This document shows positions 7,577 to 46,030 of a stretch of 64,000 nt of DNA, one piece after another. The translations under genes were made by a program, and so were the position numbers. Location: the IMG/VR virus record IMGVR_UViG_3300025934_000016. One strand, 5' to 3'. Origin of the DNA: an uncultured virus (IMG/VR IMGVR_UViG_3300025934_000016). Taxonomy: Duplodnaviria; Heunggongvirae; Uroviricota; Caudoviricetes. The notes under the pieces were generated by a model. It saw only the letters and a list, made by a program, of their open reading frames with translations. It ran no database searches and was not told the DNA's origin. Each line of letters begins with the position of its first letter. Positions within the stretch are counted from its first letter, which is position 1.

Positions 7577-7903
7577 ATGATCGCCAACGCAGGGGTTGAA
7601 AACGCTTCTGACGCCGATCAGATTCCCAACGACTACCAGTTTGAGATTATTCGGCTCCGCCGCCGCGTGGATGAGCTTGAATGTATCGTGCGTGACAGAG
7701 ACAGCCGAGTTGTCGCTGCTATCGCCATGTTCGAGGATGATCTCGTGATGTACCGCACTTTGTTACACGACCACGTTGCGGAAACTCACGATGGCATAAA
7801 ACGGCGCGTGATTCGGATCGAGACAACACTTCAAACATTGAAAGCAAAGGGCAGTAAATTCTACCCGCCCCTGGATATCCCCGAGCGCTGGCAAAAGAAG
7901 TGA
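7577..7903 (+). CDS. Hypothetical coiled-coil protein (start uncertain; frame open from 7241)
   Basis: Protein-like 3' half; converges with the endolysin. Confidence 0.55.
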   Translation: MIANAGVENASDADQIPNDYQFEIIRLRRRVDELECIVRDRDSRVVAAIAMFEDDLVMYRTLLHDHVAETHDGIKRRVIRIETTLQTLKAKGSKFYPPLDIPERWQKK

Positions 7904-7906: not shown

Positions 7907-8446
7907 TCAGAGCGCTGCGGTGACGGCTAGGGCCTTCTCCAATACCTGATCGGGATAGTCGAGGTTGCCGCCATTCCAGCGGAGCAGTGCATCGTGCTTG
8001 TTTCGATTCCCAAACTGGCTCGCGTAGACCCACCAGTGCTTGATCCCGAACTCGATATTGACGTAGGGGTCGCAGAGCTCGGTTAAGAAGCCGCCGCGAA
8101 AGTGCTCCTCGCGCGCTCCTGCGCCCATGAGCTGCATCAGGCCCCAGGAAGCCTGCTGGCCCCACCACTCCTGATCGGGGTCGCCTGCGAGGCAAGGAAA
8201 GTCATTAGGCGGGGTTTTTGAAGCGATTTCGGAATCCGCAACCTTTCGAAACACCGAATCGTTCTTGACGTTCCAAAACCAGCGGTAGCGGGGTTCAGGG
8301 TTATACGCCCATGGGTTTCCGCCCGATTCCTGAAGGATGATCGCTGTAATAAGCGCGGGGTCAAGATCGATGGAGGCTGGGTAGCCCTTGAGCGCGGCTT
8401 GAACGGCGCTGTAATAGCGAATCGCGCAGTGGAGCGGGCTGGTCAT
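7907..8446 (-). CDS. Endolysin, SLT-type lytic transglycosylase
   Basis: AIILQESGGNP (catalytic Glu), SWGLMQLM, WNGG. Confidence 0.9.
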   Translation of the reverse strand: MTSPLHCAIRYYSAVQAALKGYPASIDLDPALITAIILQESGGNPWAYNPEPRYRWFWNVKNDSVFRKVADSEIASKTPPNDFPCLAGDPDQEWWGQQASWGLMQLMGAGAREEHFRGGFLTELCDPYVNIEFGIKHWWVYASQFGNRNKHDALLRWNGGNLDYPDQVLEKALAVTAAL

Positions 8447-8778
8447 TTTGGCGTGGCGGCGGCTTGAATCATGGAGTCGATGATCCCCAGGAGCTTTAGA
8501 TTCGCTTGCAGGGCGGCATTGATCGCCGACTCGTTGGTGCCCGATCGATCGGCGTGGATTTTTACGATCTTTAGCTTGCCGTTGTCATTCTCGATGTCGA
8601 GGTCAAGTCCCTGCTGCTCTTTTGAGCTGTCATACGACGCCTCAAGCGTGCCGTCCGGGAGTATTCTATAAGTTGCCACGGTCTTGGCGCTAAAGTATGC
8701 CGCCCCGCAGCTCGAGGCGAGAAACAGCGCGAGCATGAGCCCTGCCGCCGTCCAGATAACCGATTCGGTCTTACTCAT
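8443..8778 (-). CDS. Putative lipoprotein (spanin candidate)
   Basis: Hydrophobic N-terminus ending LASSC; adjacent to the endolysin. Confidence 0.5.
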   Translation of the reverse strand: MSKTESVIWTAAGLMLALFLASSCGAAYFSAKTVATYRILPDGTLEASYDSSKEQQGLDLDIENDNGKLKIVKIHADRSGTNESAINAALQANLKLLGIIDSMIQAAATPK

Positions 8779-8968
8779 GGGGGCCTTCCTTTCCTTCTTT
8801 GACCTCGGCCCTGTACGCTTGAGCTATTTTCGCCGGCAGGTCATCTATTTTGACGTTAAGCAGAGCGTAGAGATATTTTAGCGCTTCGTACTTCTGGCGC
8901 ATGGTCCAGTTGCGGATCACCAGGCGGAGATCTTCTTGGAGTTCTTCTTGGGTCTTAACGTCGCTCAT
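8771..8968 (-). CDS. Hypothetical protein
   Basis: 65-aa ORF overlapping both neighbours. Confidence 0.7.
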   Translation of the reverse strand: MSDVKTQEELQEDLRLVIRNWTMRQKYEALKYLYALLNVKIDDLPAKIAQAYRAEVKEGKEGPHE

Positions 8969-9627
8969 CGGCTGGTCGTGTTACAGGAAAGCGGGGTGTA
9001 AGCGCTCGCACCCTTGGCATTAAGCCCCCTCACTTTTCCGCAGTAACTCGTGTGCGCCTTTAAGCCGGTCCAATCCCAGTTGGTTGTGTCGGCCGGGAGG
9101 GTGGCTCGCTTCACAAAGGCTCTCGGGCCGTTTGCCGTCCTGCCGACCACCTCGTAACTCGTCTCATTCGCCACGTCGTCCCATGTGAGCGATAGCGTGT
9201 CTGTGGGGGAGGCGGAGTTTTGCGAGACCGTAAACCCGCTGGGGGCATTGGGTGGCGTCGCCGGTGGAGGCGGCGGAAGAAAGGCGATACACGCGAGATT
9301 GGAGTAGGTGCTCGACACCGTGGGACCGCTCGTAGGCACAAGCACGGCCTTCAGCCGGTAGGTATAAGTGTTGGTTATCAGGGGATCGCGCACCACCGTC
9401 GTGTCGACCACCTGTGTGGTGTTGGCCGCAATCGGCGCGAGTGCCGCAAACGACCCGCCGTTTAACTGGCGCTCCAGGACAAAGCCGGTCTCGTTGGTGG
9501 AATTATCCTGCCATGTGAGCGTGGCCTGAGTCGGATGAGTCAAGTCCGCCTGGAGACAGGTCTGCGCGTAGGTGAGTCCGGGAATCCCGAGGAGCAGCCC
9601 CGCTACTAGAAGTATGCCTTTCCACAT
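8965..9627 (-). CDS. Signal-peptide protein with two fibronectin type III domains
   Basis: MWKGILLVAGLLLGIPGLTYA; LTWQDNSTNETGFVLER; LTWDDVANETSYEV. Confidence 0.85.
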   Translation of the reverse strand: MWKGILLVAGLLLGIPGLTYAQTCLQADLTHPTQATLTWQDNSTNETGFVLERQLNGGSFAALAPIAANTTQVVDTTVVRDPLITNTYTYRLKAVLVPTSGPTVSSTYSNLACIAFLPPPPPATPPNAPSGFTVSQNSASPTDTLSLTWDDVANETSYEVVGRTANGPRAFVKRATLPADTTNWDWTGLKAHTSYCGKVRGLNAKGASAYTPLSCNTTSR

Positions 9628-9651
9628 AAGATTCTCCCAAAGGGTAATGCT

Positions 9652-12099
9652 TTAGAATCCATTGATTTGAAACGTCGAACTGGCGCCTATTTCGAAGGTC
9701 GATCCGGCGCCTATCTGGAAGTTGCTGGGCGCGATCACCGGCACAACGGGACAGTTGGCATCGCCGATCACGCTAGGCGTGGCGATGTTGGTCTGGACTG
9801 AGCCTGAAGCAGCGCAAGCGGCGCCGAACGTTGTGTTCCCGCCCGCAGTGACCGGGATGCCCCAGTTATAAACCCGGACCTCATCGATCATGCCGTCGAA
9901 GTACTCGCCGAACTCGCTGTTCCCAACCCGTAGTGCGAACGTGGACGGCTCGATGTAGCCGGTCGCTGGCGTAGTGGTTATGAGCACGCCGTTTTTATAA
10001 AGCTTTAAGTTTGCGCCGTCGTAGGTAAGCGCGAGATGGGTCCATGTGCCGATTGGAAGCGGCGTTGCATTACAGACGGTAAAGCGCGGCGTTGATGTGC
10101 CATTGGTAGTGAACGTGCCCAAAACCTCCCCGTCGCCACACCCGCCAAAAGAGGTAGAGCTTGCATAAAGCTCGTAGGGCGAGGACGGTGTGCCGTCGCC
10201 CGTGGATGAAATTTTATGTACCACTGCGCGAAAGTCGGTGTGCGGGTTGGCCGGGTTTACCCAGGCTGAGATGGTAAAGGACTGGGTAAAATCGAGTGTG
10301 TTGGCCGAGGCGATATCGACATAACCCGTGGTGCCGTTAAAAGAAAGCGCCTTGCCGTAGCGCCCATTGGTTGCCCAGGTCATACCGCCCGTGAGCGTGC
10401 CGGTATTGCCGTTGCCGCTTGAGTCGGTGGCGCTTGTGCCGCTGCCGGTTTCAAACCCCAGTGCTACGGCCAGGGTATTGCCGGGAAAGGTCGGGGCGTA
10501 AGTGACTGCGATGCTGTCGGTGCTCGCGTTTAGGTTTGAGTCGGTGGCGGTGATCGTAATGTTATTGACACCCGGCTTGAGCGGAATATTGGAGGCGGTC
10601 CAATTGGCGGTTCCTGTGGCAGTGCCCGAGCCACCGCGGTCATTGACCCAGGTGATGCTGCCCGTGGATGCGATTGCGCCAATATCGGTGCCGCCCGTCC
10701 CGGCCCCTCGCGCAGGGCTAGAGGACTGCAGGGTCAAGTCGCCGGCACCGGGGTTGGTAAACAGCGGATTGGTCTGGAGGCTCGTCGTATTGTCGCCCGA
10801 GAGCGAGCGCCAGGTTGCTAGAGATGTGGTGTCAGTCCCATTGGACCATTGCCAGTGCAAAGTACCGCCGTCGGTGCGGTAATAAATGTTGTTTGAAAAT
10901 ACGTTCCCGGTGCAGCTTGCGGAGGCTGCGTCTACCGACACCACACCCTGCACGCTGGAATTGACGACAAAAATATTGTTCCTGACTATCGTATTGGAGC
11001 CGGCCTGAAAGAACTGCATCCCGTGGGTATCAACATCGTAGACTGAGTTGTGATCGATCACATTGCCGGTGTTGCCGGTGCAGCTACTCCCTCGCGTCTG
11101 AAATCCCCTGGAGGCCAAAGCGTGGGCGTTATAAATCTGGTTATACGAGATGGTTGCGGTGCTGCAGTCGGCCTCATAAAAAACTCCCGCGAAGCCGCCG
11201 CCGCCATGAATGCTATTGGTTCCGTTGTAATTAAAAATCCTGTTTCGCCTGACCGTGGAAGTTCTATCGCCGGCATCGCAGTAGATACCGGCGGTCAGGT
11301 TGTCGAATGTCGGCGCGTTGGGTGGATTGGTGACGGCTGCATAGCAGGCGGCTAGATCCTGAAAGTCGCTGATTACATTGTCGCTGATCGTGCTGCTAAG
11401 ATTTGTCTCTCCGCCCGAGCCTCCGCTTAGATAGACCCCCTGGTGCTGGCGATGCCCGTCAATCACACCGCAGCGCACCTGAGTGATTGTGTTGAACGTG
11501 ACCTGGGTATTGAGCGTGTGCATCAGCTCGATGCCGGTGTAGATCGGGTTAGTGATCGTGTTCTGAGTCACGATGGCGGTGATACGATGGGGGCTGGACC
11601 AGTTGCCTTCGATGAAGATCGGCCTGATCGTCTTACCGGTGCTCCCCTGAGTCGTCCCGCCCCAGCAGTTGATTGTAAGCCCGCTGACGGTAATTCCCAC
11701 CGTGTCCACGGTGTCAGCTTTGGCGTGCACGGCGCTGCCCGCAGTGTTAGCCGTGGAGCAGGCATCCCACCGGAGATTTCGTACCGTGATGTAGTTCGCG
11801 TCGTTGATATCCAACTGCATGACCAGGTTGGGGTTATGCCCCGTATCCGGCTCGATGATGATCGGGTTTGCGCTTGTGCCGCTGCGCGAGAGGGTGGAGT
11901 TGGTGGTGTAGTTACTCGCCGCATCCCTTATGCGGATCGAATCGCCCGCGTTGACAACATCAAAGGCGTTTTGGATAGAGCAGTAGGGACTCCCTGTCGT
12001 TCCCGAGCCGGGACAGGAGTTGTCCTTATCGACGTAGAGGGTTGCGCCGTAAGCATCGGCGGCAAAAAACGCGAGCAATAACGCCATTAGATATTTCAT
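9652..12099 (-). CDS. Signal-peptide beta-helix + partial Ig + LamG protein
   Basis: Likely start MKYLMALLLAFFAADAYG (ATGA overlap); PYCSIQNA, beta-helix repeats, DIGA, LamG FTISAWV...WTHLALTYDG...IDEVRVYN. Confidence 0.85.
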   Translation of the reverse strand: MKYLMALLLAFFAADAYGATLYVDKDNSCPGSGTTGSPYCSIQNAFDVVNAGDSIRIRDAASNYTTNSTLSRSGTSANPIIIEPDTGHNPNLVMQLDINDANYITVRNLRWDACSTANTAGSAVHAKADTVDTVGITVSGLTINCWGGTTQGSTGKTIRPIFIEGNWSSPHRITAIVTQNTITNPIYTGIELMHTLNTQVTFNTITQVRCGVIDGHRQHQGVYLSGGSGGETNLSSTISDNVISDFQDLAACYAAVTNPPNAPTFDNLTAGIYCDAGDRTSTVRRNRIFNYNGTNSIHGGGGFAGVFYEADCSTATISYNQIYNAHALASRGFQTRGSSCTGNTGNVIDHNSVYDVDTHGMQFFQAGSNTIVRNNIFVVNSSVQGVVSVDAASASCTGNVFSNNIYYRTDGGTLHWQWSNGTDTTSLATWRSLSGDNTTSLQTNPLFTNPGAGDLTLQSSSPARGAGTGGTDIGAIASTGSITWVNDRGGSGTATGTANWTASNIPLKPGVNNITITATDSNLNASTDSIAVTYAPTFPGNTLAVALGFETGSGTSATDSSGNGNTGTLTGGMTWATNGRYGKALSFNGTTGYVDIASANTLDFTQSFTISAWVNPANPHTDFRAVVHKISSTGDGTPSSPYELYASSTSFGGCGDGEVLGTFTTNGTSTPRFTVCNATPLPIGTWTHLALTYDGANLKLYKNGVLITTTPATGYIEPSTFALRVGNSEFGEYFDGMIDEVRVYNWGIPVTAGGNTTFGAACAASGSVQTNIATPSVIGDANCPVVPVIAPSNFQIGAGSTFEIGASSTFQINGF

Positions 12100-13505
12100 G
12101 GTAGCGTGCTCGTCCCTCCGAGGGTGATGGTCGAGGTGCCGACGGTCACGCTCGGGTTGGAAGTCGGCGAGGTGATGGTAACGACCGGAAGCGTCCCGCC
12201 GACAAACTCGTAGGCGCCGATGTCCCAGCCCGAACCTTGCGGCCTGGTTACGCCGGCTATGTCCGTGCAGGTAACGCTCGGCGTGCAACTGGCGCTCGCG
12301 GAGGCATCGGTTCCCTGATTGATAACGTTGGCGGTAGTGGTCGCGTTGGAGTTCAAGTGAAAGTTGGGAGTGCTCGCCGTGGGCGCCACAAAGATCGTGG
12401 AGGCCGCGGTGCTGGAAAAATTATGATCGACCGTGGGGGAGCTGCACGCTGCGGTATCGATGCTGTTGACGTTATTGGAAACGAGCAGGTTGTTTTTAAT
12501 GACCGCCCCCGGCGCCGTATCGCAATGGATGACACCGAATGCCCCGGTGCCGCCGTAGATGGTCAGGTTGATTAGCTTGTTGTTGGACCCGCTGTAACCG
12601 ATGTCCGCGCCGTTCCAGCTATTATAAATGAGGATGTTATATGCGAGGTTGTTGTCGCCCGAATAGAGCCCGACGGCAAAGTTGGCAAAGCGATGGTCGA
12701 GCCCAACATCGTGGATGGTAATATTTCGATAGATGTTGTTCGACGGTGCGCTTGAGCCGCTTGCCCCGCTTAGGTAGTTATGAATCCCGTAATTTTGATA
12801 ATTGTAGCAAGTCGTGTTCTCGATCAAGTTTCTATCGGTATGAATATACCAGCAGTGACGCTGGTCGGACTGGGTAAACGTCCCGCCACCGCCGTCATGG
12901 ACCGAGCCGCCAGTAATCCAGATGTCGCTCCCGATGCGATCGCCACCGCCGACTTGATAGCCCTGTCCCGAATAGTTCTTTACCTCGATATTGTCGAATT
13001 TTAGGTGATCGATCGCGCCGCCGTTGGCACCGCCGCCGATGCCCACGCCGTCAACATCGCTGGTGGTTGCACCATTGTTCGAGCCGTCGCACACCAGATC
13101 CTTAAAAATAATGTAGCGCATCGTGGTGCCGTTATCCCCGGCGCCCACACACCCCACTCCACCCGGGGTCCTAAGCGTTGCCACTTCGCCGGTGTGTCCT
13201 TGGATCACAAGGGCGTTGGAATAACTCGACCCACTCTTGGAGGCGAGCTGGGCGATGGTCATGTTCTCGGCGTAGGTGCCGCCCCGTATGTCGATGACGT
13301 CGCCCACACCGCCCGAGCTTGCGCTAATCGCCGTCGCAATAGTGGCGTAAGCGGTGGGGCTCCCCGCGCCGCCGGAACAGTTGCGCGCGCTCACGCTGTA
13401 ATTTCCCGAGCATCCCGATGGGGTCAGCGCATCCACGTAGCGGGTAGCCGCTTGGGCGCTTGTCGCCGCAAGTAAAAATAAAAAGACCGCCAATATTCTC
13501 TTCAT
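12096..13505 (-). CDS. Signal-peptide right-handed beta-helix protein
   Basis: MKRILAVFLFLLAATSAQA; IDIRGGTY, Asn-rich repeats, RPQGSGWDIGAYEF. Confidence 0.85.
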   Translation of the reverse strand: MKRILAVFLFLLAATSAQAATRYVDALTPSGCSGNYSVSARNCSGGAGSPTAYATIATAISASSGGVGDVIDIRGGTYAENMTIAQLASKSGSSYSNALVIQGHTGEVATLRTPGGVGCVGAGDNGTTMRYIIFKDLVCDGSNNGATTSDVDGVGIGGGANGGAIDHLKFDNIEVKNYSGQGYQVGGGDRIGSDIWITGGSVHDGGGGTFTQSDQRHCWYIHTDRNLIENTTCYNYQNYGIHNYLSGASGSSAPSNNIYRNITIHDVGLDHRFANFAVGLYSGDNNLAYNILIYNSWNGADIGYSGSNNKLINLTIYGGTGAFGVIHCDTAPGAVIKNNLLVSNNVNSIDTAACSSPTVDHNFSSTAASTIFVAPTASTPNFHLNSNATTTANVINQGTDASASASCTPSVTCTDIAGVTRPQGSGWDIGAYEFVGGTLPVVTITSPTSNPSVTVGTSTITLGGTSTLP

Positions 13506-14539
13506 TGGATCACCACTGGTCTGTGCCGGCGCACGGTTGCAGGTGCAGCCGGGACCGCTTTGAGTGCGTAGTAATACATCGTGACGGTGTTCTCGTTGAC
13601 GCTAAGCGCGGTGCCGACCTCAAAGCCGGTCGATAAAAACTGCTGGATTCGGTCGGTGCTGACATCGGCATCGCTCGAAAACGCTGCGTCACCGGTATTG
13701 TCCTTGAAGCGCCAGATCGCCACGCGCGAGCCGCTCTCGCCTTTGATAATGACAAACTGCGGTAAGAAGCCCGGTAGAGTTACAGCACGATTATCGTTGG
13801 TGACACCATCGCCGACCGCATTGCCGACATAGCTACTGGCCGAGGTGCTTCCGCTGACCGCCTTGATGGCCAAATAAAAAACGTTTTGCCCCGAGCGATT
13901 GACCGTCGCATCGGTCCCGACCTCAAAGCCGCTGCCATTGAAAGCCTGAATGCCGTTGGACATGCAGGCAAAAGCCTGGAAAAAGCAGCTCTTGTCACCG
14001 CTCATTGCGGTTGTGCGAAACATCGCTTCGCTGTTGGAGTTGTCGTCGGTCTGGACCAGGACAAACTCGGGCGAGAAGTCGGCGATTGCGCCAAGCGATG
14101 TGCTCGATATGTCAATGGCGCGGTTATCACTGCTGTCGCCCGTGACGTGCCCTACTGCTAGATCGCCGCCATTGTTAGCAAGCGCGGTGTAGTAACAGGT
14201 CTGAGTGTCGGCATTGGCTAAATCGGACGTGCCGACCTGAAAGCCGTCGCTGTTAAAAGCCTGAATGACATCGGTGAATATGCCGCTCGATGCGTCCAGC
14301 CGAATCGCCGCTTCGCCAAGGGTGGCGATCATATCGCGCGTGCTCCACATCATAGGTTGTCCGCCTCGGCACTTGACGAACACGACATCAGGCTGAAAGC
14401 TTGTCACCGAGGGCGAGGTTGTTGAGGCAATCACAATGTTGCGATTGTCGGCGCTATTGCCGGTGTATGACCCGCTGGCAAACTTGTAGCCCCACGCGGG
14501 CGAAGCGATAAATAAGAGAAGAAGAAGGAGCCAGTTCAT
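13502..14539 (-). CDS. Signal-peptide fibre-like protein with three internal repeats
   Basis: MNWLLLLLLFIASPAWG; three copies of a unit like SYTGN..DNR...F.P..V......IQ.F...GF.VGT. Confidence 0.8.
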   Translation of the reverse strand: MNWLLLLLLFIASPAWGYKFASGSYTGNSADNRNIVIASTTSPSVTSFQPDVVFVKCRGGQPMMWSTRDMIATLGEAAIRLDASSGIFTDVIQAFNSDGFQVGTSDLANADTQTCYYTALANNGGDLAVGHVTGDSSDNRAIDISSTSLGAIADFSPEFVLVQTDDNSNSEAMFRTTAMSGDKSCFFQAFACMSNGIQAFNGSGFEVGTDATVNRSGQNVFYLAIKAVSGSTSASSYVGNAVGDGVTNDNRAVTLPGFLPQFVIIKGESGSRVAIWRFKDNTGDAAFSSDADVSTDRIQQFLSTGFEVGTALSVNENTVTMYYYALKAVPAAPATVRRHRPVVIQ

Positions 14540-17256
14540 TAAGCCGCCTGTTTCAAAAGCACGCCCACCACTCGCGCATCGCCATCGTCGGTGTTGGTGG
14601 TGGCGTCAGTGGTCCAGCGGAAAAATAGAGTTGCTCCCGCGCCGCAAGTCCCGTTAGGAGTGATCGCCGCCGTGGTCCCGGTGTAATTGTTATTGGCGCT
14701 AGTCATCGTGATATCGAGCGTTTGCGCCGCGCCCCAGGTCCCATCGACCGTGGTTGCGTTGTTTCTGCACATCGCCTTAAAGGCACCCGCGAAATGCTGT
14801 GAAGCGCTATCCACGTCGTTGACGGTGAGCGTGATGGTGATTGTGGCGAGAGAATGTGTGAGCGTTATCTGGCCGTCAAATGTGGAGCTATTCGAATCCG
14901 CGCACGAGAAGTAGTAGCCGGTTGGACCGCCATTGATCGTTTGCTTGGTTGGATCGGTGCAGTTGGTTCCATCCGGGGTAAGCGAGCCGCCGTCAAAAGA
15001 CGCATTGATCCCGGTCGTGAGCGTGTTGGTGCCGCCCGCCTCGGTGGCAACCAGGGTCTTATTCGTGCCCGTGCTCGTGCTGGAATCGGTCCAGGTGCCA
15101 GTTCCCGCCACACCGCCGTCAATGCAGGTCACAACGGCGCCCGCTACGGCAAGTTTGACTATATGGCCGTCTGTGAGCGCGCCGCCTGCAGTCGTGCAGG
15201 GTGCGATGGTGCCGCTGGCGTTGGGAATCGTCCAGGTCTTTGTCCCTGTGACTGCCGAAGTATCATAGGTGAGCTTGTTGGTAGCAACATTGCCCACCGA
15301 GAGACCGCCCGACGCATTGGCCACGCCCGCCACGTCTTTGAGTGTTCCCGAAGTGCCAAAGGAGGTCGCGCCCGTGGCGATCAAATAGTTGCCCGTCGTC
15401 GCGCCGCTCAGTCCGCCAGTTGATGTTGTGCCGCAAGTCCAGGAGCCGTTCCAGTTAAGATGCTGCCCAGCGGAGTCGATACAGGATGGGATGGCCTTGG
15501 TGGTCATGGTCCCGGCGCCGGTGAACATGGGAAAGGCATCGGTCGCTCCGCTCAGGGCCGAGAGCGCGGTCAAGTTGGCGTTGAGTGCCTGGACTTCCGA
15601 AGAGATAGAAAGCGTGACCGTGCTGCCGTTAAAGCCGCACTTGAGCCGGTTCGCGGTGGTGTCGTAGGCGCAGCGCCCTGAGAGGGTCGGCGTGGCGCCG
15701 CTCGCCTTGGGAAAGGTAAAGCTCGCCGCCGCACCAAAGTCCTGATCGCCTGCGGAAAACGCATTCGACTGATCGGTCTGAACGGCCAGAGACCCCAAGT
15801 TGATCACCGGGTCGCCACCCACTCCCCCAGGATTGCTCGTGAAGACCACCCGGTTAGCCGTTCCCTGAAGAGTACGCCCCGCGTAGGTTCCCGCGCCCGT
15901 GCGCACCATGATCCCCGTAGCCGAGAAGTCGCTGTCACCGACAAGCCTCGTGTTGGCGTTGGGCACGCTGAGCGTGCGCGTGGTCGAGGGGGTGATCCCT
16001 GACACGTCCCACTTGAGGATTTTGGAGGTATCGGCCGTATCGAGTAGACTCCAACTCCCTGAGCGCCAACTGTTCGCGCCGGTCCACGTATAAGCCGCCG
16101 ACTGATCTAGCGATGCCGCTGCTGCAGGACAGGTACCGTCAAAAGCGAGGTATTGCCCCGCTCCGCAGGAAGTCCGGTTGGCCACAATGGTTCCGGTGCC
16201 GGTCGTATTGAGCACGCCGCCGCTGCCGATCGAGAGCGCATTGACGTTGGAGCCCGCCGTGACCGCCGAAAAAGCGACCGCGCCGCCCGTCGTGTCGAGG
16301 TCGGTTGTGGAGCCGTTCTCGCGTTTTCGAAACTTGTTGGTTGACGAGTTATACCAGACATCGCCGTTTGCGGGTGTCGATGGGTCGCCCGCCACCGGGC
16401 CGATGTTGACCCCCGCCGTCGTGGCGCTATGGCTAAAAATCTGTTTGGCGCCTGCGGTATAGGTATTGGTCTGATCGGTCTGAACGGCCAGAGACCCCAA
16501 GTTGATCACCGGGTTGGCGCTGCCGTCCCCAGGGGTAATAGTTACCCGGTTGGTGGTGCCCTGAAGCGTGCGCGAGGCGTAGGTTCCCGCGCCCGTGCGG
16601 GCCATGAAGCCGACTCCCGAGAAGTCCGCATCACCGAGGAGCCGTGTGCTCGCGTTGGGGAGGCTAAAGGTTCTGGTTGTGGAGGTGGTAAATCCCGATA
16701 AGTCCCACTTGAGAATCTTGCTCGTATCGGCTGAATCGAGAAGGCTCCAGTTTCCTGAGCGCCACGAATGAGGGCCGGTCCAGGTGTAGGTCGTGCTTTG
16801 ATCGACAATGCCTGTGGGAACCGTGCAGTCGGTTCGGTTCTGAACCGAGTTGTCGCTGCAGGCGATTCCGCCGCCGGTAAAGTTTAGGTTTGGGCGCTGC
16901 GTGAGCGGTGTGGCCTCATCCTGAATGGTATGGGCGGCACCGCCGCCGCTCGTGATCGAGACATCGGTGGCGCCCGTGGCGGGGTTATCCGCGGCCGTCA
17001 CGCCCGAGCCGGTGAAGTTGAGCTTTTGGCGGGGCGCGAGATTCACGCCCTCGTCTTGGACGGTATGCCCGGATTGTCCTCCGGGAAACTGGTTATCGAG
17101 CTTGTCGAAATTGTTGTTGATGTCCTGGCCCCAAGTGCCCGGTTCGGCCTCGGGTTTGACCAAGCCTAAATTCGGCGTGGTTGTTTGTGCGTAGGTGGGG
17201 TATGTAAATTGGCAAACGGCAATCAGGAAGACAAAAAAAGACAATAGTTTTTTCAT
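14539..17256 (-). CDS. Tail fibre-like protein with signal peptide
   Basis: MKKLLSFFVFLIAVCQFTYPTYA, then the fibre N-terminal motif TTTPNLGLVKP...WGQDINNNFDKLD; G/T/S-rich with internal duplications. Confidence 0.8.
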   Translation of the reverse strand: MKKLLSFFVFLIAVCQFTYPTYAQTTTPNLGLVKPEAEPGTWGQDINNNFDKLDNQFPGGQSGHTVQDEGVNLAPRQKLNFTGSGVTAADNPATGATDVSITSGGGAAHTIQDEATPLTQRPNLNFTGGGIACSDNSVQNRTDCTVPTGIVDQSTTYTWTGPHSWRSGNWSLLDSADTSKILKWDLSGFTTSTTRTFSLPNASTRLLGDADFSGVGFMARTGAGTYASRTLQGTTNRVTITPGDGSANPVINLGSLAVQTDQTNTYTAGAKQIFSHSATTAGVNIGPVAGDPSTPANGDVWYNSSTNKFRKRENGSTTDLDTTGGAVAFSAVTAGSNVNALSIGSGGVLNTTGTGTIVANRTSCGAGQYLAFDGTCPAAAASLDQSAAYTWTGANSWRSGSWSLLDTADTSKILKWDVSGITPSTTRTLSVPNANTRLVGDSDFSATGIMVRTGAGTYAGRTLQGTANRVVFTSNPGGVGGDPVINLGSLAVQTDQSNAFSAGDQDFGAAASFTFPKASGATPTLSGRCAYDTTANRLKCGFNGSTVTLSISSEVQALNANLTALSALSGATDAFPMFTGAGTMTTKAIPSCIDSAGQHLNWNGSWTCGTTSTGGLSGATTGNYLIATGATSFGTSGTLKDVAGVANASGGLSVGNVATNKLTYDTSAVTGTKTWTIPNASGTIAPCTTAGGALTDGHIVKLAVAGAVVTCIDGGVAGTGTWTDSSTSTGTNKTLVATEAGGTNTLTTGINASFDGGSLTPDGTNCTDPTKQTINGGPTGYYFSCADSNSSTFDGQITLTHSLATITITLTVNDVDSASQHFAGAFKAMCRNNATTVDGTWGAAQTLDITMTSANNNYTGTTAAITPNGTCGAGATLFFRWTTDATTNTDDGDARVVGVLLKQAA

Positions 17257-17353: not shown

Positions 17354-20300
17354 CTATTCGTTGACGGCCGCATCATTATTTTGCGGATCCTCGGCGCTTG
17401 GCGTTTTGCGCACTTGCTCGACTGCCTTCTTGGCGTAGTCGGCTATCCTGAAAGTGATCGCATCGATTCGAATTCGCTTCGCTTCTGGCGTGATGGTCGT
17501 GCTCGCCTTGATGAGATCCGCCTGTTTCCTCAATGTCGCCAAGTTACGTGCTACCCGTTCTAGGCTGGCCGCAGCGGCAATCGCATCCCGGTTGTCCTGT
17601 CGGTATTGCTTAGCTTCATCTAATTTACGCTCCCGTCTGAGCGCATCGTAGGTGTTCTTTTTCTCTTGCGCCTCGCCATAAGCCTTATAGAACCGCTCGA
17701 TGCTTTCCGGCTGTCCGGGAAACCTCGCCACGAAACCGCGCACCACCGGCACATCGGCAGCGCTCCCCTGCGGCTCTTCCGCCTTTTTGTTTTGGCTAAA
17801 GGGCTGGCTCGCTATATCGAGTCCGACTTGCCCCAACCCGCCAAAATACCCCCGAACCAAGTTCTCGATCTTTGCCGGCGAGTAGCCGATGGCTTGCCCT
17901 GCTGCCTTCGCGGCCTCCGACGTACCCGAGGTGTACTGTTTGGCCGGCGCAACGTCCTCTTTTCCTCGAGGGACAATCCGCCTCTCTCTGAAAAGGGAAT
18001 AGTTGGCCATGTTCTCGATCAACGGGATTGCTGCGGTCGGAATCGGGTTCGGAAGGCTGCTGAGCGCACTATTGAGGAGATCCTTCAGCGCTTGCGGGTC
18101 GTTTTTCTTGATCCACTCCAGTACGCGCTCCAGTGCGCTGCCAAACAAAAGGCCCGGCTCGAACGGCTTGGGGATCCGCCAAATGGTGTGGTCCTTGTTA
18201 AACACCGCCTTTTGTTCCGGACTCATGCCCTTCCACGTCTCTTTATCCATCGAGCCGCTTGGAACAATCCAGAAAAGATCTTTCTGCCAGCGCGGCAGCT
18301 CGTCATAGCGCGGGTCGTCCTGATTCATCAGATAAAGCAGCAGGGACGGTATGGTGATCGTGGCCAGAGCGCGAAGCAAAAAACGGCTGGGATGCTCCTT
18401 TGCGAACCGGCCCATTTTATCGAACCCCTGCATGTTGGCGTTCAAAAACGCTATCGCCTGATTCATCCCGCTCGCCTTGACGGCCGAACCCATGCGGGCG
18501 AAATCAAGCGTCACTTCGCGCGATGCCATCGCGCCCCTGAGAATGTTCTCCTTTGTCAATCCGCCTTCAGACGAAATCGCCCTGGAGAACTCCCCTACCC
18601 TTGTCGCCGCTTCGCCAAGCTCGGAGAGCGCACGGAGTGAGTCGATCGGGTGTATAATGACGGTCTTGGCGACCCCCCTCACCTGTCCGCTGTCGATCAC
18701 TTGCTTTAACGTTTTCTGCATCGAGCCGCGGTCGAGCGAGACCAGCATGGACCCCTGCCCGCCGCCCGCCTTCCAAGCGTTGTAGAGGTCATCTTTCTTG
18801 AGGATATGAAACAGGCCGCGGACAAAGTGACTGCCGGGGACATTGATGATTCCGTACTGGGAATAGAGCGCCGCAGAGAAAGCGTCGCGTACTGGGTTTC
18901 TGACGGCAAACTCCGGCGAGAGTACCGTGGCGCCAAGCCGCAGGGTTCGCGCTGGGATGCTCAGAATATTGATGAGCAAGTTCCGGGAGCTTCGATCGAG
19001 TCCCGCCATCGCCTCGTAAAGATCGGGGTGAACCTGATAGAGAACCGATTGGCCATCCTTCCAGCGCGACAGAATGTTATCCATCCCGGGCACTTTTGGG
19101 TTTGGCTTAAAGGCCGCCACGATCTCGGAGGGTATATCGACCTCGCCCTGAACGCCTAACTTCGCAAGGAGCTGGGCCACTTCCTCTTGATTGAGCTTTA
19201 CCGGGACTTTCCCGCGCGGCACCTTCTCGATGTATTTCCCCATTCCCTGACCGCTTTCGGCAAGCCTCACCAGCGCATCGGCCACGGCGTTGCGATCGGC
19301 CACGTTTATCATCGCGTAAGTGTTCTTGACGATCGACTCCAGCGGGTCGATGATCTCCCGTGAGCTACCCTTAAACTTTTTGACCGGCTTGCCGAGATTG
19401 GCGAACTTGTTGCCCCCCGCCATGCCGTCGGTGTGGCCTTCCATCAGGCGATAAAATGGGACGTACTCCTGGTTCAGTTCTTTGATTTTATCGGCGCTCT
19501 TTTTACTCAGAACGCCGGCCTTCTGCGTGTAGTCGAGTAGCGCATTGTTGTATTTCTGGAGCTCCTCGGCGGCTTTTACGAAGTGCGGCTTATCGTTATA
19601 GGCATCGAGAGTCGCCCGCACGTCATCGGCAGCAAGCCCGGTTTCTTTCCCCCGAGTCATCAGCTCAGCGGCGCGACGGGCGACGAGGTAGGCGCGGAGA
19701 TCATCGAGATTCTTTTGGAAAGGGCCAAGGATCTCGTTGAGCGGCTTCACGCCCTCAACCGGGCGGAAGGTGTCGTAATCGATCGGCCCCTCTTTCAAGA
19801 AGAGTTCGGCGCGCCCGGTCCAGCCGCGGAACAACCGCGCCAGAGTATAAGGGCTGTCGCCTGCATTTAGCGGTTCTCTGCCTTCTGACATGCGATTTTC
19901 GAATACCTTGATGTAATGGAGGTCGTCGAGCGCGCTCTTATACAGTCCGGCCAGCGTGATGGGCTTGGCGTCTTTCTCTCCGACTGATACCTGAGACAGG
20001 ACACGCGCCACGGGCGGCTGCTCCTTGTATCGTTTCCAGTCGGCGCGGGCTTTGCTCAGCGTTTCCCCGATATCGGGGTTTTTCGGTAAAAAGTCCTCTT
20101 CGAAGTATTTCAGGAACTGCGGCGCTTTGGTTTTGAGATGGTCGGGATTGGTGACATAGAACTGAATGAACTCCGCAACCCCTTCTTCCCTGTACCCGCC
20201 GTGCGGGTGGCGGCTGCCATAGAGATCTTTTCCGAGCTGGATCAGTTCTTTTTTCCCCGGCGCTCGTTTTGGGATGAACTTCTTTGACAGGAAGTGGCCA

Positions 20301-23300
20301 ATCTCGTGGGCGGCGACCTGCATGTCGTTTGCCTTCTTTAAACGGATGACTTCCTCTTTGACCTTGAAAAAACCACGAGCTTTCATCTGTGAGAAATTGC
20401 CGTGCCCTGAACGGATCGGGACCTGAAAGGCTTCCTGCAGGTCGCGGATGATATCGCCCCGGCGCTGAATCGGCTCCGCGTTCGCCCCGGCCGGCGGCTG
20501 GTAGTTTCGCTCCAGCGGGGAGACGGACTGCGGCACGTCTTTCGGACTCTTGCGGAGTTCGGGAAAGCCTTGGGTTTGCGGTTCGGGATACCCATGCGCC
20601 CCTCGCGTTCCAGTTCTTTGCCTTTTCGGCGCTTCTTTGACTGCTGGCTCGGTTTCTGGATCTCCTTCTTCTGTCGTGGCTTTCACGCCCTCAATCGGCT
20701 TTCCCGTGGGCTTGGGAATTGGAACTTTGAAAGGCCTGTGCGGTTCTCCGCCGATACTTGTCTTTATTCCTTTTGCCCGCTGTAAAACCTCACTGAGAGA
20801 TTCCTTCGTCCGTAGCACGGTAAAATCCCCGTCGCCGGGAATCTTGATTGTAACCGTAGCCTTATCGAGTCGTTCCAGTTTTGGACGGTTTTTCTTCTCC
20901 CATTTGTCTTGGGCGGTTCTGTTTGCCTTAATGAGCTTTTCCCTTTCTGCTGCCGGAAGCGAGGTGTTAAAGACCGTGTTGCTCGGTCGAGTGTTGTAGA
21001 TCGCCCTCGCCTGCGCTTGGATATCTGCCTTGGAAGGGGCGGCTTTAATCAACGCTTCGAGCCGTGAGACGATTTCACTTTTAAGCTCTTGCGCGGGCCG
21101 TTCCCCCTCGTGTTGGGCGGTTTTTTTGACTGCAGTTTTGATCTCCTCCACTGCAGGTGCGGCCTCCGGCTGGCCTTTGGCCTTGATGTCTTCTTTTTCG
21201 GCGGTTTGCGGCTTGCCCGCTTCAGATTTTTTTTCTCTTAGTTGCGCATTCTCGCGCTCTAGTCGCGCGATTTGGTCCTGGACGGACTGATCGGAGGGTT
21301 TGGATTCGGCCTGTTTCCCTTGTAACTCGTCAAAGATTTTCAGCCGTTCGGCCTTACCCTCTGGCGATAGGTATGGTGTTTTTTCCGTTATGGTTCGAAA
21401 TTCCTCAAGTCGCTGAGTGGGCAAATCTCTCAGCTTCGCTTCTGTTTCCGGTGTGATTGCATCATGCTGAACTTCGACGGGCGCATTGTTGCCCGAGGTG
21501 TCGACCACGAATGTCCTATTCCCACGTCTCTCAACCTTGTCTCTGCCAACCTGAAAGTCCGATATTTGATCCGGTCGAAGCAGTTTTTTTGAACGCGGGG
21601 GCGGCGGTGTTTCTTTGGACGGAGGCACTTGCTTGCGTAATTTGGCATTCTCCGCTTCAAGCTGTTTCGATCTTTCTTCGATGTTTGGGCTAGTTTTATC
21701 CTTCAGCCAGTAATCGGCTTTCTCTCGTAGTTGTTGATCGGATAAGCCTTTCAGGTGCTGGCGGAATTCGTCATCGCTTTTGGCGATACGCTCCGCCTGC
21801 TGTTGCTCCGCTGCTTCGCGTGTGGGTTGGCGTGTACCGACGCGCGTTCCCTGCTCGCTCAGATAAGAGTATCCGGCTACGCGCCGCTCACCTGTAGACT
21901 TGACGCCGAACGGCAGACCAAAACCGGAATACCATTTGCCATCGGTGCCTTTGAGTTCGACGCTCTCCACGACGGGCATCGGCTTGCGGCTTGCGGCTTT
22001 CACTATTTTCTCAATCAACTGTTCACGTTCGCCTGTCGGCTGTACCTCTTCCCCTTTCTCCCCCTTCATCGCCTTCACTCTTTCCGCCGCTTTCGCTTTG
22101 GCCGCTTCGCGGTCGGCCTGAGTGGGTTCCTCGACCTTCGGCGCTTGGGTCTCGGCCTTTGCAGTCGTAGGAGGAACACGCGCCGCCTCGTTAGCGGCGA
22201 ACGCTTGGGCCTCAACGAGAGTCATTGGTTTTGCGGGGTCGTTCAGGTGAGCGCGCGCCCCATTAACCGTAGCGACGACATCGAACTTGCCCCGCTCAGC
22301 GTCTGATTCAAGTATCCTTACGCTCGTGCCATCTGGCTTGACCGCTACTCCGGTGCGCCTGATTTGCTTGTCGAAATTTCTTAACCACTGCGGTGCGTTT
22401 ACCTTGTCCGCTTCGGTGAACCCGCCTGGAGGTGGCTTGCTGAGAAGCGCCGGCTTGGGTGCTTTTGCCTTCTCCACCCGCTCCGCCGCTTTGGCCTTCG
22501 CGGCTTCGCGGAGCCGTTTCTGCTCGGCTTCGGCGGCTGCAATCTTTTCCTCGATGCTCGGTTTAGCTTCGGCGGGCTTCGTCGGCTCCCGGATCGGGGC
22601 AGGCCCAGTCTTTTTTACCCGATCGTAAACCTCGCCGAATTCCTTTGCGCCAAGCTCGAGGGGGCTAGATGCACGTAATCCCCATTCCTGAACGTATCGG
22701 GAATAGGCACCTTGTCTGTCTACCCCTGCCGCAATCGCGCGTTCCGCTACTGCATAGGGATCAACTCTTGATGATGGTAATTCAGATGGGGGTGGAGGCT
22801 TAGCTTGGGCCCTCGTTGCCCGTTCTGCGTCAATCTCAGCTTGTGCCTTGGCGATGGCAGCAGGTTGATGTATCTCAGCCTCACGCTCTAAGTCGGATCT
22901 TTGGTCACGTAGTATTCGGCCTGCTTGGCTATCAACTCGAATTTCTGGGTTTCTATTCAGTTCAGATAATTGCTTTTGCAGTGCTTCATATTTGGCTGCA
23001 CTTGGTTCAGGTGAAGCGGGTGAAGTTGCTCCTGGTTCCGCAACCGGCTGCTCCAGCTTACCGAGCCGGTCTTTCGCCCCCTGCGCGCTGGCGACCTGCG
23101 CCTCGGGTTTCGCTTCTGGCGGCTTTTCTTCCACGGCCGGCGCTGGCGTTTCAGCAGGCTTCGCTTCCGCTGGTGGCGGATAGGCTTGCGGGCGAAACGG
23201 TAACTCTGCTGTCGGCTCCCCTTTGGCCAAAGGCTCAATTGGAGTATCTGCTTTGATCTCAGTAAACCCTGCCGGTGATAATTCACCGGGCGGTGATAAT

Positions 23301-24760
23301 TCACGTGATAATTCACCGGGAGTAGGCTTCGGCGCTGGCGCTTTGGCCTGTACCGCAGGTGGTACAGGTTCCTCGGGTCCTTCGAGCATCCCCCCGCTCG
23401 GTCCTGGCGGCTGTTCTCCACCCGGCTGCGTTGGCGCGGCGGCTGGTGCTTCGGGCCTTGCGCCCGCTTGTCGGCGCGCCCACTCATCGGCGTAGATCTT
23501 GTAGCGCGGGTCGAGGTTGGGATCGAGAATCTTGAGCGCGGCTTGGACGTGGGCGTCGCTTGACTGGCGCGCGACTCCGGCAACCGCGGACGCATCATCG
23601 GGTGAGAGGTCGCGTAGCGGCTCGGCGGAGGAGAGTTTCGCGGCCATTTCGGGATTGAGATTTCCCCAATCGCCAAACAGCCGGCCGCGGGCGTAGCGCA
23701 ACGCTTGGCCTAAAGGTACGTGCGGCGAACCCGGCGCGTTCATCATTGCGGTATTGATCGCTCCGGCTATATCCTGGCCGAGTGTTGGGTAAAATTCCGG
23801 CTTGATCGAGCTGATCGCCTCTGTTCCTGCTCTGAAAGCGTCAGAAACTATTTCCGGCATTGGGTTTACGATCGCGCCAAGATCGGGCGTCGGCTTTCCC
23901 GCCAAGTCGGTTGTCATTGGCGGCTTACCCTGTATCGCTTGCACAAGGCCCGGGAACGGCACCATCTTTTGTGCGGCTGGGGTATCGAGTGGTGGAGTCA
24001 GTGTGCTCACTAAGGCATTGCTGACTACATTCCCCGCCGACTTGGCGATCCCGGCAAGCCTATCCTTCCACCCCTTTGCCGCCTCGTTTTCCGCCCGCAC
24101 CCGAGAGGCTCCGGCAAGCGGCGGGACCGGCTCTGTGGCCGAGGGGATGTTGTTGGCGCCCATGTCCGGCATTTCGCCAACCTGAATCTGTGGCGATGGG
24201 GTTGGAATGAGCGATCTCAGTCGCTCTTTTATTCCGGCGAGGGGGTTGGGGTTTTGCGGGACTGGCGGATTGACTTTAGGTAGCGGGGGTGGAGGCAGTT
24301 GGCCGGGATCAAGGATGTTTCTTCCCGTAGTCGTGTCGGTGACGTTCCCCGTGTCATCGACCGCGTATTGCTGGTTTAGCTCTTTTGGCGCTCCTGGCGA
24401 TGGTTTATCCCACCAGCCTTGAGCGCGCCCCTTGCCGGGCCACAACTCCGATGCTGAGGGCAACTCGGGGACGCTCGGGAGATACGACTTGACCGTCTCC
24501 ATGGAGGGAATGGACGGCATGGACGGAAGCGCAGGAAGGGCGTTTTTGACCGTGCTGGCCGCGCTCTTGACCGCGCCCGTGGCGCGTTCCATTAATGAGG
24601 GTTCGGGCGGTTTGAGCGGTATGAATTCCTCGTCCGGGGCGAGCTCCCTAAATCCCTTCGGCGAGGAGCCCATAGGCCCGCCGTAGGTGGCTGGAATCTC
24701 CCCCTTGGCGAACGGGATAACCTCGTCGTCCGGGGCGAGCTCTCTGAAACCTTCAGGCAT
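17354..24760 (-). CDS. Large polyvalent / internal virion protein with zincin-like motif and C-terminal LPD38-like domain
   Basis: 2468 aa; AAHEIGH...EEGVAEF; DPRYDELPRWQKDLFWIVP...RIPKPFE; follows the ejection genes. Confidence 0.8.
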   Translation of the reverse strand: MPEGFRELAPDDEVIPFAKGEIPATYGGPMGSSPKGFRELAPDEEFIPLKPPEPSLMERATGAVKSAASTVKNALPALPSMPSIPSMETVKSYLPSVPELPSASELWPGKGRAQGWWDKPSPGAPKELNQQYAVDDTGNVTDTTTGRNILDPGQLPPPPLPKVNPPVPQNPNPLAGIKERLRSLIPTPSPQIQVGEMPDMGANNIPSATEPVPPLAGASRVRAENEAAKGWKDRLAGIAKSAGNVVSNALVSTLTPPLDTPAAQKMVPFPGLVQAIQGKPPMTTDLAGKPTPDLGAIVNPMPEIVSDAFRAGTEAISSIKPEFYPTLGQDIAGAINTAMMNAPGSPHVPLGQALRYARGRLFGDWGNLNPEMAAKLSSAEPLRDLSPDDASAVAGVARQSSDAHVQAALKILDPNLDPRYKIYADEWARRQAGARPEAPAAAPTQPGGEQPPGPSGGMLEGPEEPVPPAVQAKAPAPKPTPGELSRELSPPGELSPAGFTEIKADTPIEPLAKGEPTAELPFRPQAYPPPAEAKPAETPAPAVEEKPPEAKPEAQVASAQGAKDRLGKLEQPVAEPGATSPASPEPSAAKYEALQKQLSELNRNPEIRVDSQAGRILRDQRSDLEREAEIHQPAAIAKAQAEIDAERATRAQAKPPPPSELPSSRVDPYAVAERAIAAGVDRQGAYSRYVQEWGLRASSPLELGAKEFGEVYDRVKKTGPAPIREPTKPAEAKPSIEEKIAAAEAEQKRLREAAKAKAAERVEKAKAPKPALLSKPPPGGFTEADKVNAPQWLRNFDKQIRRTGVAVKPDGTSVRILESDAERGKFDVVATVNGARAHLNDPAKPMTLVEAQAFAANEAARVPPTTAKAETQAPKVEEPTQADREAAKAKAAERVKAMKGEKGEEVQPTGEREQLIEKIVKAASRKPMPVVESVELKGTDGKWYSGFGLPFGVKSTGERRVAGYSYLSEQGTRVGTRQPTREAAEQQQAERIAKSDDEFRQHLKGLSDQQLREKADYWLKDKTSPNIEERSKQLEAENAKLRKQVPPSKETPPPPRSKKLLRPDQISDFQVGRDKVERRGNRTFVVDTSGNNAPVEVQHDAITPETEAKLRDLPTQRLEEFRTITEKTPYLSPEGKAERLKIFDELQGKQAESKPSDQSVQDQIARLERENAQLREKKSEAGKPQTAEKEDIKAKGQPEAAPAVEEIKTAVKKTAQHEGERPAQELKSEIVSRLEALIKAAPSKADIQAQARAIYNTRPSNTVFNTSLPAAEREKLIKANRTAQDKWEKKNRPKLERLDKATVTIKIPGDGDFTVLRTKESLSEVLQRAKGIKTSIGGEPHRPFKVPIPKPTGKPIEGVKATTEEGDPETEPAVKEAPKRQRTGTRGAHGYPEPQTQGFPELRKSPKDVPQSVSPLERNYQPPAGANAEPIQRRGDIIRDLQEAFQVPIRSGHGNFSQMKARGFFKVKEEVIRLKKANDMQVAAHEIGHFLSKKFIPKRAPGKKELIQLGKDLYGSRHPHGGYREEGVAEFIQFYVTNPDHLKTKAPQFLKYFEEDFLPKNPDIGETLSKARADWKRYKEQPPVARVLSQVSVGEKDAKPITLAGLYKSALDDLHYIKVFENRMSEGREPLNAGDSPYTLARLFRGWTGRAELFLKEGPIDYDTFRPVEGVKPLNEILGPFQKNLDDLRAYLVARRAAELMTRGKETGLAADDVRATLDAYNDKPHFVKAAEELQKYNNALLDYTQKAGVLSKKSADKIKELNQEYVPFYRLMEGHTDGMAGGNKFANLGKPVKKFKGSSREIIDPLESIVKNTYAMINVADRNAVADALVRLAESGQGMGKYIEKVPRGKVPVKLNQEEVAQLLAKLGVQGEVDIPSEIVAAFKPNPKVPGMDNILSRWKDGQSVLYQVHPDLYEAMAGLDRSSRNLLINILSIPARTLRLGATVLSPEFAVRNPVRDAFSAALYSQYGIINVPGSHFVRGLFHILKKDDLYNAWKAGGGQGSMLVSLDRGSMQKTLKQVIDSGQVRGVAKTVIIHPIDSLRALSELGEAATRVGEFSRAISSEGGLTKENILRGAMASREVTLDFARMGSAVKASGMNQAIAFLNANMQGFDKMGRFAKEHPSRFLLRALATITIPSLLLYLMNQDDPRYDELPRWQKDLFWIVPSGSMDKETWKGMSPEQKAVFNKDHTIWRIPKPFEPGLLFGSALERVLEWIKKNDPQALKDLLNSALSSLPNPIPTAAIPLIENMANYSLFRERRIVPRGKEDVAPAKQYTSGTSEAAKAAGQAIGYSPAKIENLVRGYFGGLGQVGLDIASQPFSQNKKAEEPQGSAADVPVVRGFVARFPGQPESIERFYKAYGEAQEKKNTYDALRRERKLDEAKQYRQDNRDAIAAAASLERVARNLATLRKQADLIKASTTITPEAKRIRIDAITFRIADYAKKAVEQVRKTPSAEDPQNNDAAVNE

Positions 24761-43121: not shown

Positions 43122-43140
43122 TTCTCATGTCCTCCGTGTT

Positions 43141-46008: not shown

Positions 46009-46030
46009 TCAAATGTTCGCTCCAAATCGT

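Follow-up and report, generated by a model that had tools for sequence, protein, structure and literature searches.

Assembly of tailed phages is regarded as an entirely cytoplasmic process. The fibres of Escherichia phage SU10 are cytoplasmic and leaderless, and the tailspike of P22, which attaches late and spontaneously to the finished head, has no leader and folds in the cytoplasm. Sec-routed virion proteins are found in filamentous phages, where pVIII and pIII take this path and the receptor-binding protein bears disulfides; unlike the proteins studied here, they stay membrane-anchored and assemble by extrusion. Signal peptidase I (SPase I) is active on the outer side of the membrane. Here, we analyze a 64,000-nucleotide stretch of DNA from an uncultured member of the Caudoviricetes (IMG/VR record IMGVR_UViG_3300025934_000016; the whole stretch is hereafter called the window), in which a tail fibre, unlike those of SU10, and the four late genes next to it begin with leaders of the Sec/SPase I type.

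Phage-fibre-like proteins with signal peptides are known from bacteria. According to excerpts of PMC10769870, the MAT fibres of Bdellovibrio are trimers encoded on the chromosome and displayed on the bacterium, with a conserved domain behind the signal peptide and an S74 chaperone domain in 13 of 21; they are not virion parts. One leader-bearing esterase that resembles tail hydrolases was read by its authors as a lysis aid (excerpts of PMC10975493). A literature search, with most subscription papers outside its scope, found no paper describing Sec-routed fibres in tailed phages, nor are they described in the covered passages of PMC5723332, PMC10975493, and PMC3556154.

Results

Five consecutive late genes begin with signal-peptide-like leaders

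The block comprises five consecutive late genes on the minus strand (8965-17256), each starting with a Sec/SPase I-type leader. They encode a 905-residue fibre (14539-17256), a 345-residue protein (13502-14539), a 469-residue protein (12096-13505), an 815-residue protein (9652-12099, counted from its ATG), and a 220-residue protein (8965-9627). Three of the four junctions overlap by 1-4 nucleotides and the last is a gap of 24 nucleotides. The original prediction for this locus, drawn up from the letters of the window, had described a mostly translationally coupled tail-appendage block with five signal-peptide-like leaders; the coupling is borne out, and all five leaders are present as quoted. 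Its range, 8443..17256, was drawn too wide at one end, as 8443-8964 belongs to two other genes, and it leaves out a sixth leader-bearing gene (46744-48114, minus strand). The latter encodes a 456-residue pectate-lyase-like protein (PF12708) with 12 cysteines and had no relative in the IMG/VR search.

Leaders were called by a fixed rule that requires a non-negative n-region, an uncharged hydrophobic core of eight residues, and a small-x-small site, while cleavage sites were assigned heuristically and by eye. The rule flags 7 of the 52 called genes, compared to 16 of 11,711 internal pseudo-starts to which it was applied as a chance control. Apart from the five genes of the block, the flagged genes are the pectate-lyase-like gene and a lipoprotein-like gene (8443-8778). 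Within the first 30 residues of the five proteins, the best 10-residue hydropathy amounts to 2.81-3.31, and n-, h-, and c-regions with small residues at -3 and -1, as typical of Sec/SPase I substrates, are recognizable heuristically and by eye. Neither a membrane anchor nor a lipobox was seen in the five proteins. Glutamine occupies +1 of the by-eye site in two of the six leader-bearing window proteins and is conserved at this position across the fibre family; in Bacteroidota, most SPase I substrates carry Gln at +1 (the Q-rule; excerpts of PMC5837995).

The original prediction depends on translation not starting downstream of the leaders, and no convincing alternative start that would bypass them was found in the window genes. 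Within the first 60 codons of the fibre, the only in-frame starts besides the ATG are two TTG codons, both without a ribosome-binding motif, and the downstream GTG or TTG of the 469- and 220-residue genes has only a 3-nucleotide ribosome-binding match. The block also does not display the features of a lysogenic-conversion moron, namely an own promoter or terminator and odd base composition. Its GC content (0.56-0.63) is like that of neighbouring genes, and relative to the late operon there is no excess of promoter-like (6 versus 4.9 expected) or terminator-like sites (8 versus 11.8 expected). No integrase was found among the scanned window open reading frames (ORFs), which are part of the ORFs of a genome that may extend beyond the window.

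The leader of the 905-residue fibre ends at a phage tail-fibre anchor

The fibre (14539..17256, minus strand) is composed of a 23-residue leader, an N-terminal anchor, repeated fibre modules, and a C-terminal beta-rich tip, with 14 mature cysteines. Its signal peptide (residues 1-23; 17188..17256, minus strand) has the by-eye cleavage site between TYA and Q and is followed by a tail-fibre anchor motif common to leaderless phage fibres (residues 24-54; 17095..17187, minus strand). The motif TTTPNLGLVKP, claimed to lie almost at the cleavage site, indeed starts at residue 25, one residue past it. Judged by its sequence, the predicted mature N-terminus is a real phage tail-fibre anchor.

At E ≤ 0.001, an anchor profile matched 3532 proteins. 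Within the 150 best-scoring of these matches, the motif starts at residues 2-5 in 106 proteins, with a hydrophobic stretch in 0/106, and at residues 18-31 in 30 proteins, 28 of which bear a leader; 14 are other cases. Because the anchor opens leaderless fibres at residues 2-5, cleavage of the leader would recreate an ordinary fibre N-terminus. Leaderless and leader-bearing fibres among these best 150 matches also differ in median cysteine content (0.36% versus 1.50%), and the S74 fibre chaperone occurs in 7 of 22 leaderless relatives scanned versus 0 of 8 leader-bearing ones tested; other leaderless relatives among the 22 carry collagen or pectate-lyase domains. In a tree of 28 leader-bearing anchors and 60 of the leaderless ones (47 columns; P0104 and offset oddities left out), 27 of the 28 fall in one weakly supported group. 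The poorly resolved topology has six leader changes, at least two of them forced.

A search with fibre residues 1-330 yielded 93 matches, 39 of which pass the leader rule. Among the 32 best non-self homologs, inspection by eye finds a leader in 27 and the strict rule in 19, in agreement with the leader conservation on which the original prediction was to be judged. Of the remaining five, three are upstream-extended ORF calls and two start inside the mature part. The leaders differ widely in sequence but stop shortly ahead of one common motif. In an alignment of 23 fibres, Gln24 reaches at least 90% conservation. The anchor holds 8 of the 15 invariant columns of these 23 leader-bearing sequences, a count biased by the choice of rows for similarity in residues 1-330. 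No sequence homolog of the anchor was found in the Protein Data Bank (PDB); feature neighbours of the fibre in the ESM Atlas, which serve as a lead only, are the viral T4 gp9/10-N and Mtd-N clusters (0.87-0.91).

With respect to the hallmarks of podovirus fibres, an N-terminal anchor is present in the 905-residue protein and was recognized in none of the other four. The block lies in the late tail module, between ejection-type and lysis genes, as expected of such fibres, and the 905-residue fibre departs from their leaderless cytoplasmic synthesis. Two candidate cassette relatives (L002 and L003; L-numbers and G001 label related phage loci or contigs) were rejected, as their similarity is confined to an internal fibre module and they lack a leader. 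In a different phage lineage, the 100-kb contig L027 encodes a leader-bearing anchor fibre (10001-11686, E = 1.1e-05) among other leader-bearing, Cys-rich genes.

Leader-bearing cassettes with even cysteine counts recur in related phages

Two or more leader-bearing cassette genes were found in 13 other distinct phages with different head-tail modules, near-duplicates being merged in phage counts (L001, L014, L015, L032, L033, L035, L038, L040, L041, L042, L046, L047, and L057). The usual order is fibre, short variable protein, beta-helix/Ig/LamG protein, Fn3 protein, and lysis genes. Other arrangements exist: in the capsid relatives L006 and L007, leader-bearing genes instead flank a portal-like gene on both sides, and in L020 an anchor fibre that bears a leader lies inside the tail core, flanked by adaptor-like and nozzle-like genes. 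The site tally of cassette leaders required Q, D, or E at +1, which makes such tallies partly circular. As far as can be read from these sequences, the leaders are conserved in character and function, not in sequence.

The mature cysteine counts of the six leader-bearing window proteins (14, 4, 10, 14, 4, and 12) are all even. Counted after residue 18, cysteines are even in number in 35, odd in 2, and absent in 1 of 38 complete leader-bearing cassette genes, compared to 10 even, 11 odd, and 4 zero among 25 leaderless adaptors, nozzles, and short fibres of the same phages. Even counts are thus found in 35/37 Cys-bearing cassette proteins versus 10/21 leaderless virion proteins. Where the total is odd, the extra cysteine lies mostly within the leader. 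Even and enriched mature cysteines, a hallmark of periplasmic disulfide proteins, are hence present in this set of related, non-independent sequences; because of this relatedness, nominal p-values for the parity overstate the case.

The other cassette proteins and a recurrently split Ig-like domain

The 345-residue protein, with four cysteines, belongs to a phage tail-fibre family (phrog_24898, E = 6.9e-14). Its homologs gp64 and gp69 of Pelagibacter phage HTVC104P are leaderless, indicating that phage-type proteins have gained or lost a leader. It ends in an R-H-R-P-x-V-x-Q tail (13502-13530), and a tail of the R-H-(R/K)-P-x-V-x-Q type is common to otherwise unlike second-position proteins (L033, L035, L038, L040, L041, L047, and L057). 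This shared C-terminal tail could be an attachment strand.

The 469-residue protein (10 cysteines) is of the beta-helix type with a choice-of-anchor Q domain (NF041518, above cut-off). The 815-residue protein (14 cysteines) combines a right-handed beta-helix, the second part of an Ig-like domain, and LamG (PF13229, PF13385), and had no match among GenBank phages. An AlphaFold2 (AF2) model of its residues 1-480 reached a predicted local distance difference test (pLDDT) score of 88.3. The best PDB folds for its beta-helix are GH136 lacto-N-biosidase and PL9/PL6 lyases at 9-14% identity, and viral beta-helices are matched in fold as well. The 220-residue protein is of the Fn3 type (PF00041, E = 8.4e-08) with four cysteines and has leader-bearing homologs in L032, L033, L041, L057, and L001. 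Homologs of the 815-, 469-, and 220-residue proteins carry leaders of different sequence.

A single protein with beta-helix, Ig-like, and LamG domains is present in six relatives (L032, L033, L038, L040, L041, and L047), and the 469-residue protein is homologous to the N-terminal part of these chains. In the window, the 469-residue chain stops after about two Ig strands at its C-terminus (12099..12188, minus strand), and the 815-residue protein supplies the rest (residues 480-534; 10498..10662, minus strand) behind a second leader and a second beta-helix; this remainder gives a weak, below-cut-off match to Glucodextran_B (E = 0.046). The homologs in L014 and L035 also break off at this residue motif. 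The gene that follows in L014 encodes the Ig remainder behind a different N-terminal domain; in L035, the next gene is off the contig. A split recurring at a single position suggests that strand complementation would join the two chains once exported. Alternatively, this position is a recombination hotspot and the chains do not bind each other. The three non-fibre proteins with beta-helix, LamG, and Fn3 domains may be captured host enzymes that act free.

Phage layout and candidate docking sites

The window covers most or all of a short-tailed double-stranded DNA phage of the SU10 type. It encodes a large terminase (59108-61795, minus strand) and a portal (38684-41845, minus strand), both with LAGLIDADG-bearing, intein-like insertions, an SU10-type major capsid protein (35102-36379, minus strand; Pfam SU10_MCP above cut-off), and a nozzle-like protein (28685-30232); replication genes are also present. 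The ejection-type proteins end with a 2468-residue LPD38 protein (17354..24760, minus strand), which has neither leader nor cysteine and lies directly upstream of the block. Lysis genes follow the block: a lipoprotein-like gene (8443..8778, minus strand; 111 residues, Cys24, with a canonical lipobox in a homolog), whose product is probably of the lysis or spanin type, and an SLT transglycosylase and probable endolysin (7907..8446, minus strand; PF01464). These two genes suggest a diderm host.

A candidate dock for the fibre anchor would be the head-tail adaptor (31014..31730, minus strand), whose profile matches PDB 9nwi (E = 4e-14) and the SU10 adaptor 7z47 (E = 3e-12). In L024, a leaderless anchor fibre comes directly after a distant adaptor homolog. 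The window itself encodes, between adaptor and nozzle, a leaderless short fibre of 256 residues with a variable tip (30239..31009, minus strand), a chimera whose N-terminal 85 residues match L004 and L007 and whose tip matches L014 and L015. As a conserved dock this tip was rejected, since it is shared with only L014 and L015 (2 of the 11 others compared), and other cassette phages have a Gly-rich or otherwise unlike tip. The PDB yielded no sequence homolog of the short fibre, and a single-sequence AF2 model was unusable (pLDDT 37.6). The earlier view that the whole appendage block is exported is thus overstated, given this leaderless short fibre and the leaderless LamG and other modules at 42528-51520.

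The latter lie in a minus-strand cluster between terminase and portal (42528-52497), which encodes a leaderless LamG protein, DUF4815, two coiled-coil proteins, a 434-residue protein with Pro/Trp-rich repeats, and the leader-bearing pectate-lyase-like protein. The domain at 50285-50932 is leaderless here and occurs inside leader-bearing proteins of L014, L033, and L047; for the gene at 50936-51520, L047 has a homolog with a leader. The major capsid protein ORF carries a 35-residue N-terminal extension with a hydrophobic stretch ending in LGxxG before the conserved start. A ribosome-binding motif precedes its ATG, a similar extension occurs in L008 (73% identical) and none in L004 and L006, and in G001 the product of a 142-residue gene that follows the capsid gene starts with a comparable hydrophobic stretch; the extension is possibly a membrane-tethered or host-protease-cleaved leader. 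HNH or endonuclease-like genes lie within the structural region (34208-35053, 37782-38357, 55164-55631, and 61762-62253; two confirmed HNH, the others by eye). Small divergently oriented genes at 6745-7903 could form a repressor/cro-type switch; homologs of 7241-7903 adjoin lysis genes in L032 and L033.

Matches to the block come from 24 listed public data sets of rhizosphere or soil metagenomes under 23 study codes, one possibly the window's own, and no RNA data set is among those listed. In four other public runs, contigs match the block with few differences, none of them spanning it entirely. GTDB scans were blank for the fibre alignment and for one cellular-looking beta-helix homolog.

Leader-bearing tail blocks in cultured phages

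In Cellulophaga phages phi18:3 (gp085-087) and phi10:1 (gp091-094), leaders end before Gln, and the proteins are annotated as "structural protein, experimental MS/MS proteomics" (tandem mass spectrometry). With phi10:1 gp095, which has a leader but not this annotation, 7 of the 8 leader genes in both blocks are so annotated, compared to a leader in 0/17 other MS-annotated Cellulophaga phage proteins examined. Among acidobacterial phages, Tunturi_1 (gp12-17) and Tunturi_4 (gp113-114) possess leader-bearing, Cys-rich tail-block genes.

Discussion

We propose that the cassette products, made from the late operon, would be exported by host Sec and cleaved by SPase I, and that the exported chains would fold with disulfides in the periplasm. 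Leader cleavage would free the fibre anchor at the N-terminus, as in ordinary cytoplasmic fibres, and once lysis breaks the inner membrane and the wall, the pre-folded fibre would dock on finished particles, with some of the beta-helix, LamG, and Fn3 proteins probably attached to it. In addition to the cytoplasmic short fibre, particles would thereby gain a second set of adsorption or depolymerase proteins. For most of the block, this entire course from export to docking at lysis is the reading we favour, with moderate confidence, whereas export and periplasmic folding of the block products, considered separately, are highly probable. Sec export with cleavage and such periplasmic disulfide folding, as put forward in the original prediction, is well supported by the conserved leader character, the small-x-small site before the anchor, and the even cysteine counts. 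The proposal that the products join virions finds support for the 905-residue fibre, with its intact anchor and the MS/MS-annotated cultured analogues, and less for both beta-helix proteins and the Fn3 protein, which have the look of ordinary proteins secreted by bacteria. Display on the infected cell, the other option raised there, is less likely, since the five proteins lack a recognizable membrane anchor or lipobox.

Several observations weigh against this proposal. The homolog counts are not independent, as 27 of the 28 leader-bearing anchors fall in one group. The short-fibre tip is not conserved across cassette phages and therefore offers no shared dock, and since the phage has its own leaderless short fibre, the exported set may be dispensable. 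In L038 and L040, the leader-bearing fibres have another N-terminal module in place of the anchor. The 815-residue beta-helix is nearer in fold to secreted glycosidases and lyases than to solved tailspikes and has stand-alone, leader-bearing homologs (30-39%), one of them on a 520-kb contig, that resemble cellular secreted enzymes. Disulfide-crosslinked virions assembled in the cytoplasm are reported in excerpts of PMC10811340 and PMC13576161, the latter indicating that virion disulfides can form without export, perhaps by spontaneous oxidation; disulfides alone are therefore no proof of export. Among the cultured analogues, the Cellulophaga proteins differ from those of the window in showing no homology to them, in having 0-3 cysteines, and in their Bacteroidota host, and co-purification could explain their MS/MS annotations. 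The similarity of Tunturi_1 gp13 to the anchor is weak (E = 0.17 in 49 targets), and a leader was found in 0/14 Tunturi_3 genes examined.

The alternative that survives best, although unlikely, is a mixed cassette from which only the anchor fibre, and perhaps the 345-residue protein, joins the virion, while the rest are free exported enzymes or lectins that act at lysis to clear polysaccharide of capsules or biofilms. Such a division of labour would fit the homologs and domains, which are typical of proteins that bacteria secrete, the adjoining lysis genes, and the failure to recognize a phage anchor in the beta-helix, LamG, and Fn3 proteins. Translational coupling to the fibre speaks against it, as do the conserved C-terminal tails and the recurrent split of the Ig domain, which point to a joint complex, and beta-helix proteins are also standard tailspikes. 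Taking this alternative together with our favoured reading, it is likely that at least the 905-residue fibre joins the virion.

Less probable still is a role off the virion altogether, as exported decoys or as host-surface or lysogenic-conversion proteins that mask the receptor or occupy it and block superinfection. The leaders are of the classic kind, bacteria do secrete phage-like fibres, such as those described for Bdellovibrio in excerpts of PMC10769870, and the small divergent genes at 6745-7903, for which no family match was found, could be an immunity region. However, conservation within the fibre is highest in the anchor, which would be useless off the virion. Moreover, the five proteins have no membrane anchor, the block has no separate promoter signal, no integrase was found among the ORFs scanned in a window that may not be the whole genome, and the cultured analogues are annotated from virion MS/MS. 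That the leaders are not used for export at all, acting as a membrane tether at the cytoplasmic face or being skipped by a downstream start while disulfides form by air oxidation after lysis, is very improbable: the heuristic, by-eye leader calls, the disulfide-crosslinked virions built in the cytoplasm (excerpts of PMC10811340 and PMC13576161), and a hydrophobic capsid extension unlike a Sec signal would allow it, but tripartite leaders with small-x-small sites occur in all five proteins and across homologs, SPase I works on the outer side of the membrane, no Met lies between fibre leader and anchor, and the parity holds for the mature part, odd totals arising mostly from leader cysteines.

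A more far-reaching version of our favoured reading, which we offer tentatively, is a second periplasmic assembly line, in which every cassette product would leave the cytoplasm, fold with the help of host Dsb enzymes, and enter a single pre-assembled adsorption complex. It is conceivable, with no greater confidence, that the split Ig domain joins the 469- and 815-residue proteins and that the C-terminal tails plug other modules onto the fibre. Similarly speculative is the final step, where the complex would snap onto DNA-filled particles only once the inner membrane is breached. Host secreted enzymes could then be recruited unchanged as receptor-binding parts, and progeny would be kept non-adsorbing until lysis.

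If correct, the export-and-docking proposal adds a compartment and a final lysis-coupled step to tailed-phage assembly, opens the virion surface to disulfide-bonded, host-derived enzyme folds, and makes infectivity dependent on Sec, SPase I, and Dsb of the host. It would also imply that such genes may be wrongly filed as morons by annotation pipelines. New in the window are the division of a single anchor family into leader-bearing and leaderless members and the apparent link between two proteins through a recurrently split Ig domain.

Comparison with known systems

The window shares with Escherichia phage SU10 the capsid family (above cut-off) and a related portal and adaptor. Its fibre has the TTPNLxLxxP...WG...NxNxDxLD anchor and the tail-module position of leaderless podovirus fibres (L024, L026, and Tunturi_4 gp112), from which it differs in its leader, seen in 0/106 of them; the leaderless fibres are also Cys-poorer, and many carry the S74 chaperone. 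In contrast to the Bdellovibrio MAT fibres, the window fibre is phage-encoded and gave no match to S74, the domain compared.

The closest parallels in organization are found in cultured phages. Cellulophaga phi18:3 (KC821620) and phi10:1 (KC821618) likewise have consecutive leader-bearing tail-block genes with Gln at +1; the record rows displayed do not mention the leaders. Neither "signal peptide" nor "mass spectrometry" occurs in the covered main text on the Tunturi phages (PMC11924767). The Tunturiibacter phages Tunturi_1 and Tunturi_4 are cultured soil phages whose leader-bearing tail-block genes are Cys-rich like those of the window, although the proteins show only faint similarity to it (E = 0.001-0.005). 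With Tunturi_1, Tunturi_4, phi18:3, and phi10:1, cultured phages with the same trait exist, which makes the question of Sec-routed tail fibres directly testable.

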